Shown: positions 2,917-17,974 of the stretch, in pieces
Layout: each line of letters opens with the position of its first letter
Position numbering within the stretch: position 1 is the first letter of the stretch
Sequence record: PZ445435.1
Direction: 5' to 3' (one strand)
Source: a phage
Length of the DNA stretch: 64,000 nt
Notes under the pieces: model-generated
What the model saw: the letters and a program-made list of their open reading frames with translations, nothing else
Database searches by the model: none
Told to the model about the DNA's origin: nothing
Position numbers and translations under genes: made by a program

Positions 2917-3204
2917 TATAAATTCTCTTTTAAATGAAAATGCAGGACTTATTGGCATTGCCTGCGAAAGCCCTCAAAGGGGTACTTAGGTTTTGAATAT
3001 TTACCGACAGGATAACCATAAACCCGTCATCATACCACCAAGACTTACACAGATAACACTTTTCTGACGCATGATAGTAACATTCAAGAGGTACACCATA
3101 AAACTGCCGGGGTCTTAAAACTATAATGATTCGCAAATCATTAATCAGACAGTTCGACGGCTCCTCGTTTTAACTTCACACTAAGGCAGTGACTCTCCAA
3201 TAAA

Positions 3205-3453
3205 TTACTTCAGTGTTACCACAAAGTGACGAACTGCTTTTCGTGCGGCAGAAGCCAGAGGCTTAGCATATTTAAGTTCATCTTTTTCCTGAAGCTCAGC
3301 AGCTAATGCAGTTTGAGCAGGATTCAGATGTTTGAAATAACGCAGGATTTCAAGAGCTTCGGCTTCAACATCAATAGATGCGCCATAGTTTTCGTGACCA
3401 TTATTCCATGCGTTTCGTTGCAGTTCAAGAGCGTGTTGTAATTGTTTAATCAT
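3205..3453 (-). CDS. rIII: lysis inhibition accessory protein rIII
   Basis: 82-aa product matches recalled T4 RIII sequence and position next to gene 31. Confidence 0.85.
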   Translation of the reverse strand: MIKQLQHALELQRNAWNNGHENYGASIDVEAEALEILRYFKHLNPAQTALAAELQEKDELKYAKPLASAARKAVRHFVVTLK

Positions 3454-4517: not shown

Positions 4518-5098
4518 TATTCACCACAGAATTCGTTGATATTTTCCCAATTTAACTTATTCAAGTTTTTCTTAGGAACATTAAACACTTCAATACCTGC
4601 ATTTCGCAGAATATCATCCCAGCCAGGTTTATTTTTATCGTATGTTTCGCAATAAACCAGTTTTTTAATTCCAGATTGAGCTATGGCTTTTGCGCAATCT
4701 GGACAAGGAGAAAGTGTTACATACATAGTAGCACCTTCAATAGAAGAACCATTTCGTGCAGCAAACAAAATTGCATTTAGTTCAGCATGAATTTCATTTT
4801 TAGACGACCATTCAGAGTGAGCGCTACGGTGTTCTTTCGCCAAGACAAAGCGATCAGTTGAACCAAATGATACGCATTCAGGCTTATGGCCTTGGATGAT
4901 AGTATGTTTAGGTTTATTCAGCAACCAACCTTGCTCAGCGGCATAATCACAACAGTTCACACCTCCTGCGGGTGAACCGTTATACCCAGTAGAAATAATA
5001 CGTCCATTCTTTTCAATTACTGCTCCTACCTTCCAGGAGCAACATTTTGATTCTTGTGATACTAAATATGCAATTTGAAGTACTGTACTCGCTTTCAT
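4517..5098 (-). CDS. cd: dCMP deaminase
   Basis: 193 aa; HAE...PCxxC zinc-binding deaminase motifs. Confidence 0.9.
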   Translation of the reverse strand: MKASTVLQIAYLVSQESKCCSWKVGAVIEKNGRIISTGYNGSPAGGVNCCDYAAEQGWLLNKPKHTIIQGHKPECVSFGSTDRFVLAKEHRSAHSEWSSKNEIHAELNAILFAARNGSSIEGATMYVTLSPCPDCAKAIAQSGIKKLVYCETYDKNKPGWDDILRNAGIEVFNVPKKNLNKLNWENINEFCGE

Positions 5099-6382: not shown

Positions 6383-6394
6383 GATGCCACGCCA

Positions 6395-14747: not shown

Positions 14748-15064
14748 AAGTCCTCAACTTGAAAATCGTCTTTAAACAATCGGTTAACTATATGAGCTAT
14801 TATATCACCATGACACGGCTTTGGTTTACATGTGCATCCTAGCCTCATTCCACGTAAAGGCTCTAAATGTGCTTTAGTTATTTCTCCGGATTTAATTCGA
14901 CGTATAAAATCTTTTTTGAATAATTCAATGGCAGCCTCCCGGCTGCCAGCATCTTTACCGACGTAATTTCCCCAAAATGTACCGCGGTGAATATTAACAT
15001 CAAAGTCGGATTTGTATTTATTCACTACCCGGCATAGACGGCCCGGTTGGTAATAATTCTTCAT
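14738..15064 (-). CDS. DUF4326-like protein (108 aa)
   Basis: C...CxC...CHGD pattern; ORF track. Confidence 0.45.
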
Positions 15065-15281
15065 ATTGTTTTTCCGTTAAAACAGTAATATCGTAGTAAC
15101 AGTCAGAAGAAGTTTTAACTGTGGAAATTTTATTGTCAAAATACTCACGAGTCATTTTATGAGTATAGTATTTTTTACCATAAATGGTAATAGGCTGTTC
15201 TGGTCCTGGAACTTCTAACTCGCTTGGATTAGGAAGTGTAAAAAGAACGACACCAGAAGTATCTTTAAATCGTAAAATCAT
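15018..15281 (-). CDS. hypothetical protein (87 aa)
   Basis: ORF track; 47-nt overlap with downstream ORF. Confidence 0.4.
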
Positions 15282-16138
15282 ATTGCCATTTTCCCTTTAA
15301 TTGCTGGATGCGATTCATAATTTTCAAGGATAAAATCTTTCGGTTTCATGTATTCAGTTAACCAGTAAAGCTGTGTTTCGGTGTCACAATTTTCAAACTC
15401 TATAGGCCAATCAATTTTAAGTTCGCACAGTTCTTTAGGCTCACGACGTAAAATTTCTTTACATTGTTCTACATGATTCATATAGATATGAGTATTACCA
15501 CCAGAAAATATCAAATCTCCTGGGATAAGATTACACATCTTAGCCATAATATGCGTCAAGGCAGCGTACGAGGCAATGTTGAATGGCAAGCCCAAGAAAA
15601 CATCTACACTTCTTTGGTACCACTGTAAATCAAGATAACCATTACGCACATTAAACTGATAGAACATATGACAGGGTGGTAATGCCATTTGATTGATTTC
15701 AGCTGGATTCCATGCTGAAACGATTTGACGTCGATCAGTTGGTAATTTTTTAATACGATCAATAGTTTCAACTAATTGATCCACACCACCGAAATCACGC
15801 CATTGTTTACCATATATAGGACCCAGTTCACCACTATGATATCCTAGGTCTTTAGCTTGGTTTTCATAATTGTCATCCCAGATAGTTTTACCTTGAATAA
15901 GACTACCGTGAGTAAGAAGACGTAAATCATTAACATTGGTAGAACCGGAAATAAACCATAAAAGCTCAGCAATGCATGCATTCCAGGCGAGCTTCTTAGT
16001 TGTTACTGCAGGAAAACCTTTACTTAAATCCCAGCGTAATTTAGTACCGAACAAAGCAATTGTTCCTGTGCCCGTTCGGTCATCGGTTTCATAGCCATTT
16101 TCAAAAATGTCTTTAATTAAATCTTGGTATTGTTTCAT
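15278..16138 (-). CDS. td: thymidylate synthase (intronless)
   Basis: 286 aa contiguous; matches recalled T4 TS. Confidence 0.95.
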
Positions 16139-16183
16139 TTAGTACCTTATATAAATTATAATACATTTTATGAAGCTAAATAA

Positions 16184-16531
16184 TCAATACGGTTTAGCAT
16201 CAAATTTTCTCTCAATTTCAGGCGTGAAATATAATTCTTTACCGCGTTTGGAAAAGCGACCAATAATATGATAATTATTCTCATCAAACGTGATATTACC
16301 AATATCCATAGCTTTCAACCAAATATCGATATTTCTATCCAACTTTATGTCAAAATTCCAATACGGAGAACTATTACCGAAAATACTGCAAGCGGATTCA
16401 GTAAAACAACTACTATAAATCTTATCTTTAGGAACTACTAATTGATAGACACCTTTAATAAACTGAGGACCCTGCCATTTTGGTTGTTTCGTGTCTTTTT
16501 CTAATAGAATAGGGTAATAATTAAAATTCAT
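16184..16531 (-). CDS. hypothetical protein (115 aa) inserted between frd and td
   Basis: ORF track; no recognisable motif. Confidence 0.45.
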   Translation of the reverse strand: MNFNYYPILLEKDTKQPKWQGPQFIKGVYQLVVPKDKIYSSCFTESACSIFGNSSPYWNFDIKLDRNIDIWLKAMDIGNITFDENNYHIIGRFSKRGKELYFTPEIERKFDAKPY

Positions 16532-16550
16532 ATTTCCGCCACGCGTTATT

Positions 16551-17377
<827 letters not shown>

Positions 17378-17388
17378 ATTATCTCCTA

Positions 17389-17721
17389 TTAAAAAGGATC
17401 AGGAACATATCCGCTAGCTTTAATCATTTTAATTAACGTTAACATTCCTTTGTTAACTGCTCGTGAGATTTCATCAAAAACTTCATCACTAAAAAGTTCT
17501 AACACACCCTTCTGAACTTTTAATTTACAGCCAACAATTTCGTCATCGCCTATAGTAAATTCATTACCACCAATTCCTCCGAAAAACTTAATTACACCAG
17601 TTAACTGTCTTCCACGAGAATATGGATCGTGTGATAAATTAATATGAGTCACCCCGGGTACAGTTTTAAATTGGCAGCGAATGTTTACTTGTGAAATTCC
17701 AGTTACATGAATATCAGACAT
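17389..17721 (-). CDS. hypothetical protein (110 aa)
   Basis: ORF track. Confidence 0.45.
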   Translation of the reverse strand: MSDIHVTGISQVNIRCQFKTVPGVTHINLSHDPYSRGRQLTGVIKFFGGIGGNEFTIGDDEIVGCKLKVQKGVLELFSDEVFDEISRAVNKGMLTLIKMIKASGYVPDPF

Positions 17722-17731
17722 AATATTTTCC

Positions 17732-17974
17732 TCAAATAGACTTTTTCACAATTTTCCAATCAGCTTTAAACTGATCGACGTCAGAGTGATAAATCCAAAA
17801 TCCTGCGCTTTCACCGTCTTCATAAAGCGGACACCCATCACATTCATCTTCCCATCCCATGCCACGTAAAAGGTGTTCAGCTTTTTCAACAAGTTCAGAA
17901 TCTTTACCGATGATATTAAAATACCATTTACCTCTAACTTCCGAATCTTTGATGCTCTGACGTTGTAATCTCAT
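17732..17974 (-). CDS. hypothetical protein (80 aa)
   Basis: ORF track. Confidence 0.45.
   Translation of the reverse strand: MRLQRQSIKDSEVRGKWYFNIIGKDSELVEKAEHLLRGMGWEDECDGCPLYEDGESAGFWIYHSDVDQFKADWKIVKKSI

Follow-up and report, generated by a model that had tools for sequence, protein, structure and literature searches.

The window analysed here is a stretch of 64,000 nucleotides of phage DNA (PZ445435.1), in which the genes for dihydrofolate reductase (frd, 16551..17132, 193 aa) and thymidylate synthase (td, 15278..16138, 286 aa, uninterrupted and intron-less) both lie on the minus strand. The ORF list placed a gap of 412 bp between them (16139-16550, as in the preliminary description), and this gap contained one further ORF on the same strand, downstream of frd and upstream of td, which is called td.1 below. 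This ORF occupies 16184..16531 (348 bp including the stop codon, 115 aa, with an ATG start and a TGA stop). It is separated from the frd stop by a spacer of 19 nt (16532..16550, AAATAACGCGTGGCGGAAAT on the coding strand) and from the td start by a spacer of 45 nt (16139..16183, minus strand), which reads TTATTTAGCTTCATAAAATGTATTATAATTTATATAAGGTACTAA. An exact-match search identified a 9-bp direct repeat, TAAATGAAA, on the minus strand, with one copy across the frd stop codon (16549..16557) and the other across the td start codon (16133..16141). The ORFs found on the opposite strand across the td.1 region were short and unsupported.

The same junction in T4 (NC_000866) consists of the frd stop and the td start overlapping as ATGA, with nothing else present, and T4 td is split by a 1017-nt intron encoding I-TevI. 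The window Frd protein shared 97% amino acid identity with T4 Frd. The window Td aligned continuously with spliced T4 Td (238 of 286 residues identical), and the 1017-nt intron was missing. A 115-codon ORF with its own spacing between frd and td, an ATGA overlap in T4, and a td gene without the T4 group I intron had all been reported in the preliminary description, and the sequence and junction alignments bore this out. The td allele of the window is distant from that of T4, with 188 of 861 nucleotides and 48 of 286 amino acids differing, and heavy synonymous recoding was seen in the region corresponding to the T4 intron-insertion and I-TevI target site (TATCAACGCTCAGTAGATG...GGTCTACCGTTTAATATTGCG in T4, TACCAAAGAAGTGTAGATG...GGCTTGCCATTCAACATTGCC in the window). 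Near-identity to T2H and RB32 was nevertheless seen at the 3' end of frd and over the initial ~150 nt of td.

Regulatory features were searched for around the ORF. An Rfam scan of positions 15000-17500 returned only sub-threshold chance matches and no Rfam family. The td.1-td spacer contains a MotA-box-like AGCTTCA about 10 nt upstream of a TATAAT, which loosely resembles a T4 middle promoter; this stretch is not present in T4, where the deletion proposed below would have removed it, and it is not conserved in the phage NHEP29. A scan for sigma-70-like sites found TTGATT-18-TATTAT at 16187..16158, and the total number of sites was that expected from shuffled sequence. A td-specific promoter in this spacer was considered and dropped, as the promoter and terminator scan was at shuffle expectation.

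The protein encoded in the window matched PHROG 1928 ("unknown function") with an E-value of 1e-35, residues 4-111 aligning to profile positions 2-125/126. Our own family HMM recovered the window gene at E=3.6e-34, and tblastn detected Td.1 homologs in 580 phage records, one per record. Pairwise dN/dS among the Tequatrovirus and Mosigvirus copies ranged from 0.00 to 0.13; the copies in this set differed by at most 41 nucleotides and at most 9 amino acids, and the window gene differed from that of NHEP29 at 39 nucleotides but at just 8 amino acids. These values indicate strong purifying selection. Given the PHROG 1928 match, the homologs in 580 records and the low dN/dS values, the ORF was taken to be a real gene and not a chance open frame. 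The opposite reading, that the ORF is fortuitous or is a decaying, functionless pseudogene, could draw on the lack of any known domain, on the lack of literature and on the fact that T4 manages without td.1. It is given almost no probability here and is effectively refuted by the selection and conservation data, since the excess of nucleotide over amino acid differences, the full-length homologs across genera and a confident structure prediction all speak against it.

The existence of the gene is already known, since hundreds of genome annotations include it. The T2H record AY262132.2 (protein ABI48932.1) gives it the name td.1, at 99% identity to the window ORF, and it is listed in the RB32 genome as RB32ORF229c, with the remark "flanked by 9 bp repeat". 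It was also found in T2, T6 (as an unnamed ORF) and RB68. The T2H, RB32 and T6 genes are the same gene as that of the window, with 97-99% amino acid identity (one to three amino acid differences), and their position, spacers and flanking 9-bp repeat are all as in the window; the loci differ from the window in the td allele, with Td proteins 86-87% identical. A literature search on td.1, RB32ORF229c, phrog_1928 and related accessions found no paper on the gene, and a paper citing AY262132 uses the record for nrdB only. In other records td.1 has been labelled "putative glucose-1-phosphate adenylyltransferase", "putative dihydrofolate reductase" or "putative homing endonuclease", and a second small ORF of the interval, described below, "flagellar biosynthesis protein". 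Family scans gave no support for the public names of either ORF. Inconsistent annotation of these small ORFs was seen in PQ571308.1, MW749000.1, OK274152.1, OM386666.1, PV390659.2 and NC_054944.1.

Among the 580 records with a homolog, 362 encoded a protein with at least 90% amino acid identity to that of the window; these were Tequatrovirus together with a few Mosigvirus at approximately 93%. The other 218 were below 60% identity, and the homologs in other Tevenvirinae genera, located beside frd, were 26-47% identical. These distant carriers included Jiaodavirus, Moonvirus, Kagamiyamavirus, Gelderlandvirus, Roskildevirus and Marfavirus, as well as Enterobacter and Edwardsiella phages. The most distant detectable members were from Proteus, Morganella and Providencia phages and were also beside the DHFR gene. 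Between genera, td.1 (27-47% identity) evolves faster than td, whose product is 71-81% identical.

Seven distant loci were inspected, namely those of Enterobacter phage MY742, Klebsiella phages Mineola and F48, Erwinia phage Cronus, Salmonella phage STML-198, Citrobacter phage Moon and Escherichia phage EcS1. The td.1 homolog directly followed frd in six of them, the exception being Cronus, in which a long paralog lies in between, and its start overlapped the stop of the gene just upstream in all seven. Apart from the order in Cronus, the related loci inspected agreed in having td.1 downstream of frd and upstream of td on the same strand. In the Mosigvirus NHEP29 and in most other genera there is no counterpart of the 19-nt window spacer, and the start of td.1 overlaps the stop of frd.

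A second ORF of about 115-123 aa was present after td.1 in five of the seven distant genomes, and Cronus carried one of 144 aa before td.1. Blastp E-values as low as 1e-12 and a match to PHROG 1928 identify this ORF as a td.1 paralog, which occupied the frd-td interval in 126 records. Carriers of the long form of the paralog include Moonvirus (e.g. CPT_Moon253 of phage Moon), Gelderlandvirus, Karamvirus, Marfavirus, Kagamiyamavirus and others. The long form shares with Td.1 the PHROG 1928 assignment, the C-terminal GRFxKxG hairpin motif, the Q..W motif and the location in the frd-td interval; it differs in having about 20 residues inserted behind the Trp motif (consensus PTIEQYKRNP), and its identity is just ~20-30%. 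It was not found in the window, nor in any Tequatrovirus record seen. A metagenomic contig with a td.1 63% identical to that of the window carried the full cassette, in the order frd, td.1, paralog, 69-aa ORF, td. Among 1.84 billion proteins the family formed 42 clusters at 50% identity, nearly all of stand-alone proteins of 95-139 aa, with three clusters of 37-49-aa fragments and none fused to another domain. A search for related loci with the 10-member family alignment mostly recovered the same isolate genomes.

Three alleles of the junction were observed within Tequatrovirus: td.1 alone (362 records), a 68-aa ORF alone (135 records) and the ATGA overlap with no ORF (35 records, T4 stocks making up roughly half), these counts being approximate as GenBank/RefSeq duplicates are included. 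Approximately one third of the close relatives lack td.1. The 68-aa ORF (MSNKLKV..., PHROG 9550) is unrelated to td.1, the 135 records being those at 90% identity or above, and it is the homolog of the third ORF (69 aa) of the full frd-td cassette. This ORF lies at 501-707 in the locus of Escherichia phage fFiEco06 (L011), at 3173-3379 in locus L003 and at 4670-4879 in locus L013. Its start overlaps the frd stop and its stop overlaps the td start, and homologs at 40-43% identity were present in Phapecoctavirus-type phages, e.g. phAPEC8. Scans of the paralog and of the 68-aa ORF against Pfam, NCBIfam and PADLOC returned nothing.

As the preliminary description had held, td.1 is missing from T4 itself: when the complete T4 genome was translated in six frames and searched with the family HMM, the best E-value was 1.3. 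When the junction was compared across T-even phages this absence was confirmed for T4, but the ORF turned out to be present in most relatives. The T4 junction, TATAAATGAAACAATACC, is exactly what is obtained when one copy of TAAATGAAA is kept and the 416 bp between copies are gone. Among T4 mutations, deletions between short direct repeats form a classical class, and T4 most likely lost td.1 by a 416-bp deletion between the two TAAATGAAA copies, which would leave the present T4 state. A deletion is the parsimonious reading because outgroups carry td.1 and because the T4 junction contains a single repeat copy. Some caution is called for, as the repeat is a common stop/start context (TAA-ATG-AAA) with eight occurrences in the window. 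The reference phage of the sister genus Mosigvirus, RB69, likewise has a bare frd/td ATGA overlap (6384-6387 in locus L020). NHEP29 is also a Mosigvirus, with Frd 97% and Td 98% identical to those of RB69, and it carries td.1 (1501-1848 in locus L014), with an ATG overlapping the frd stop and with the 8-mer TAAATGAA on both sides. The presence of td.1 is thus polymorphic in both sister genera, and both textbook genomes lack the ORF. At this junction T4 and RB69 would represent the derived, deleted state.

The preliminary description had called the ORF an inserted accessory gene. If the T4 overlap were ancestral for the T-evens, td.1 would have been inserted later, in the lineage of the window phage; the ATGA overlap shared by T4 and RB69, the references of two sister genera, fits such a history and counts against a simple deletion reading, and the short direct repeat around td.1 could be read as a target-site duplication. 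Outgroup genera, however, have td.1 at the same place, after frd, and the ORF-less junction is in the minority. The dS between the Mosigvirus and Tequatrovirus copies of td.1 is ~0.7, which marks the gene as old in both genera. The full cassette in the 63% identical relative and the single repeat copy in T4 also run against the direction of change that had been assumed, and a late insertion is considered quite improbable. An ORF-less ancestor of Tequatrovirus and Mosigvirus, with td.1 re-acquired later by recombination, is a less probable alternative to the deletion. T4 is an unsafe baseline for calling insertions; at frd/td, both T4 and RB69 would be the deleted exceptions.

The other part of the earlier claim, that no nuclease motif can be recognised and that the ORF is unlikely to be a homing endonuclease, stood up to the Pfam and NCBIfam scans and to the 45-member alignment. 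A reading of td.1 as a free-standing homing endonuclease or other selfish mobile cassette that inserted between frd and td, or as a descendant of one, is suggested by the records of Bas42 and other Bas-series (BASEL) phages, which give "putative homing endonuclease", by the 9-bp repeat on both sides, by the variable presence of td.1 among close relatives, and by the many homing endonucleases of this genome region (I-TevI, mobE, segG). The T-even free-standing homing endonuclease genes (seg of the GIY-YIG type, mob of the HNH type, and hef) resemble td.1 in being small ORFs between conserved nucleotide-metabolism genes and in being variably present among close relatives. Unlike these genes, td.1 has no nuclease motif or conserved catalytic residues, occupies one and the same locus in distant genera and evolves under strong purifying selection. 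No GIY-YIG, HNH, LAGLIDADG, His-Cys box, PD-(D/E)xK or EDxHD motif could be recognised in Td.1. The window protein matched no Pfam family even with E-values up to 10, and no NCBIfam or PADLOC model; across the 45 family members no Pfam match was better than E=0.011, the matches were scattered singles, and no nuclease family was among them. The single His of the window protein is not conserved, and no alignment column of Asp, Glu, His or Cys is conserved. By every available test, Td.1 showed no catalytic signature. Functional GIY-YIG or HNH phage endonucleases are longer than 115 aa, which also counts against this reading.

The surroundings of td.1 point the same way. One copy per genome, at one locus, in many genera and down to 26% identity is the pattern of an old resident gene, and the repeat is of the common type described above. 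In the comparison with RB32 and T2H, a block of high identity begins in the 3' part of frd, continues across td.1 and ends ~150 nt into td, where td diverges. The block thus crosses both boundaries of td.1; sharp identity breaks at the ends of the gene were looked for against RB32 and T2H and were not found, and the pattern reads as ordinary T-even mosaicism. The distribution of td.1 is variable within genera, yet the locus is the same in many genera, and no signature of recent lateral spread was seen. On this sequence evidence the "putative homing endonuclease" label of some records is unsupported, and the homing reading is regarded as highly improbable. According to the BASEL paper, labels of this kind were derived from comparative alignment and not from motifs. 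Two further proposals were dropped. A recently spread cassette, more conserved than its neighbours, was not compatible with identity blocks that cross the ends of td.1 or with the dS of ~0.7. Loss of td.1 by hitch-hiking with the td intron through I-TevI co-conversion was abandoned since T6, PST, NBG2, ECML-134 and many other phages have both. The two elements are independent, as the window has td.1 without the intron and T6 has both.

In the alignment of 45 family members, Trp19, Gly91, Lys95 and Gly97 were invariant, and Gln16, Gly27, Tyr29, Phe93 and Phe102 were near-invariant. The window protein has all of the family residues (Q16, W19, G27, Y29, G91-R-F-x-K95-x-G97 and F102), as judged from alignments of 10 and of 45 members. 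The family is mildly basic, with a median pI of 8.7. An AlphaFold model made with the 45-sequence alignment reached a pLDDT of 90.6 and a pTM of 0.83, and shows a beta-rich protein with one helix (68-76) and a long C-terminal hairpin (86-96, 99-104) bearing the GRFxKxG motif; the domain is confidently predicted to be compact. Foldseek searches against BFVD matched uncharacterised proteins of T4-like phages alone, including Aeromonas phages, and profile searches of PDB sequences gave no match below E=0.04. OB-fold and small beta-barrel nucleic-acid-binding domains (HIN, Teb1/RPA OB, S1, SSB, PriB) were set beside Td.1 for comparison. The median pI and the conserved Trp, Tyr, Phe, Lys and Arg residues are indirect hints of single-stranded DNA or RNA binding.

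Taken as a whole, the ORF is td.1, an annotated small early gene that is probably old in the Tevenvirinae and has been repeatedly lost. The gene is part of a conserved nucleotide-metabolism cluster of the T4-like phages (Tevenvirinae), gene 32 - frd - td - nrdA, and it very likely shares the early or middle transcripts of frd and td, because it is on the same strand and its start overlaps the frd stop in most genera. Related phages have as many as three small ORFs in the interval, namely td.1, its tandem paralog (with an insert of about 20 residues) and the unrelated 68-69-aa ORF. Of these, the Tequatrovirus isolates keep only td.1 (the majority, including the window), only the 68-aa ORF, or none, as in T4 and a few relatives. 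The protein itself may be a non-enzymatic binder of protein or of single-stranded nucleic acid, and the binding surface would be a conserved aromatic and basic patch formed by the QxKW loop and the GRFxKxG hairpin. It would act alongside DHFR and thymidylate synthase and be dispensable under laboratory conditions; T4 and RB69, both without the gene, do not need it. This functional proposal is tentative.

A specific link of Td.1 to DHFR/TS or to the dNTP-synthesis complex is doubtful. A role as an accessory or adaptor of the DHFR/TS module is favoured by the adjacency to frd, which is kept even where the other ORFs of the interval have been lost, and the tie to the T4 dNTP-synthetase complex would consist of this gene adjacency and of the start/stop overlap with frd in other genera. 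The adjacency may be mere inherited gene order, as synteny extends over the whole cluster, which contains many small unrelated ORFs. Within Tequatrovirus and Mosigvirus, Td.1 is 93-100% identical while Frd falls to 58% and Td to 86-88%, which argues against tight co-evolution of Td.1 with either neighbour, and the missing co-variation speaks weakly against membership of the dNTP complex. The loss of td.1 in about one third of the close relatives also fits a conditionally useful accessory factor better than a subunit of a metabolic complex. The more specific proposal, that Td.1 and its tandem paralog form a small binding subunit or adaptor of the DHFR/thymidylate-synthase module with a fold unmatched in the PDB, is unlikely. 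If it were true, the adaptor might tether the module to single-stranded DNA or to gp32 at the replication fork, and Td.1 would have escaped sixty years of T4 biochemistry because T4 and RB69 deleted the gene.

A different function would be that of a small host-directed or anti-defence protein binding a host factor or an immunity component, in which case the adjacency to frd would be just inherited order and retention would track the hosts met; this is a possibility to be entertained rather than expected. The polymorphism of the three junction alleles among close relatives, the tandem duplication and divergence in other genera, the faster evolution of td.1 compared with td, its dispensability in T4 and RB69, and the lack of visible co-evolution with Frd or Td are all in its favour. 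However, no match to defence models was obtained (PADLOC covers defence and not anti-defence proteins), literature searches gave no experimental link, and the near-invariance within a genus under strong purifying selection is unlike that of typical arms-race proteins. We lean slightly towards the generic binding role.

td.1 is an ordinary catalogued gene, and the residual novelty lies in the features of its family, not in the existence of the gene. PHROG 1928 is a small, well-folded, phage-restricted family located beside DHFR and missing from both classical reference phages, and it is a reasonable, though not urgent, target for functional work. Small ORFs were also observed on the other side of frd, between frd.1 (17732-17974, DUF5417) and frd. 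The window carries two there on the minus strand, an 81-aa ORF at 17132-17377 (PHROG 3183, no Pfam match) that overlaps the frd start and a 110-aa ORF at 17389-17721 (DUF7247, PHROG 3566), neither of which is present in T4. The same interval holds one ORF in RB32 and AndreasVesalius, and is a 71-nt gap in T4.
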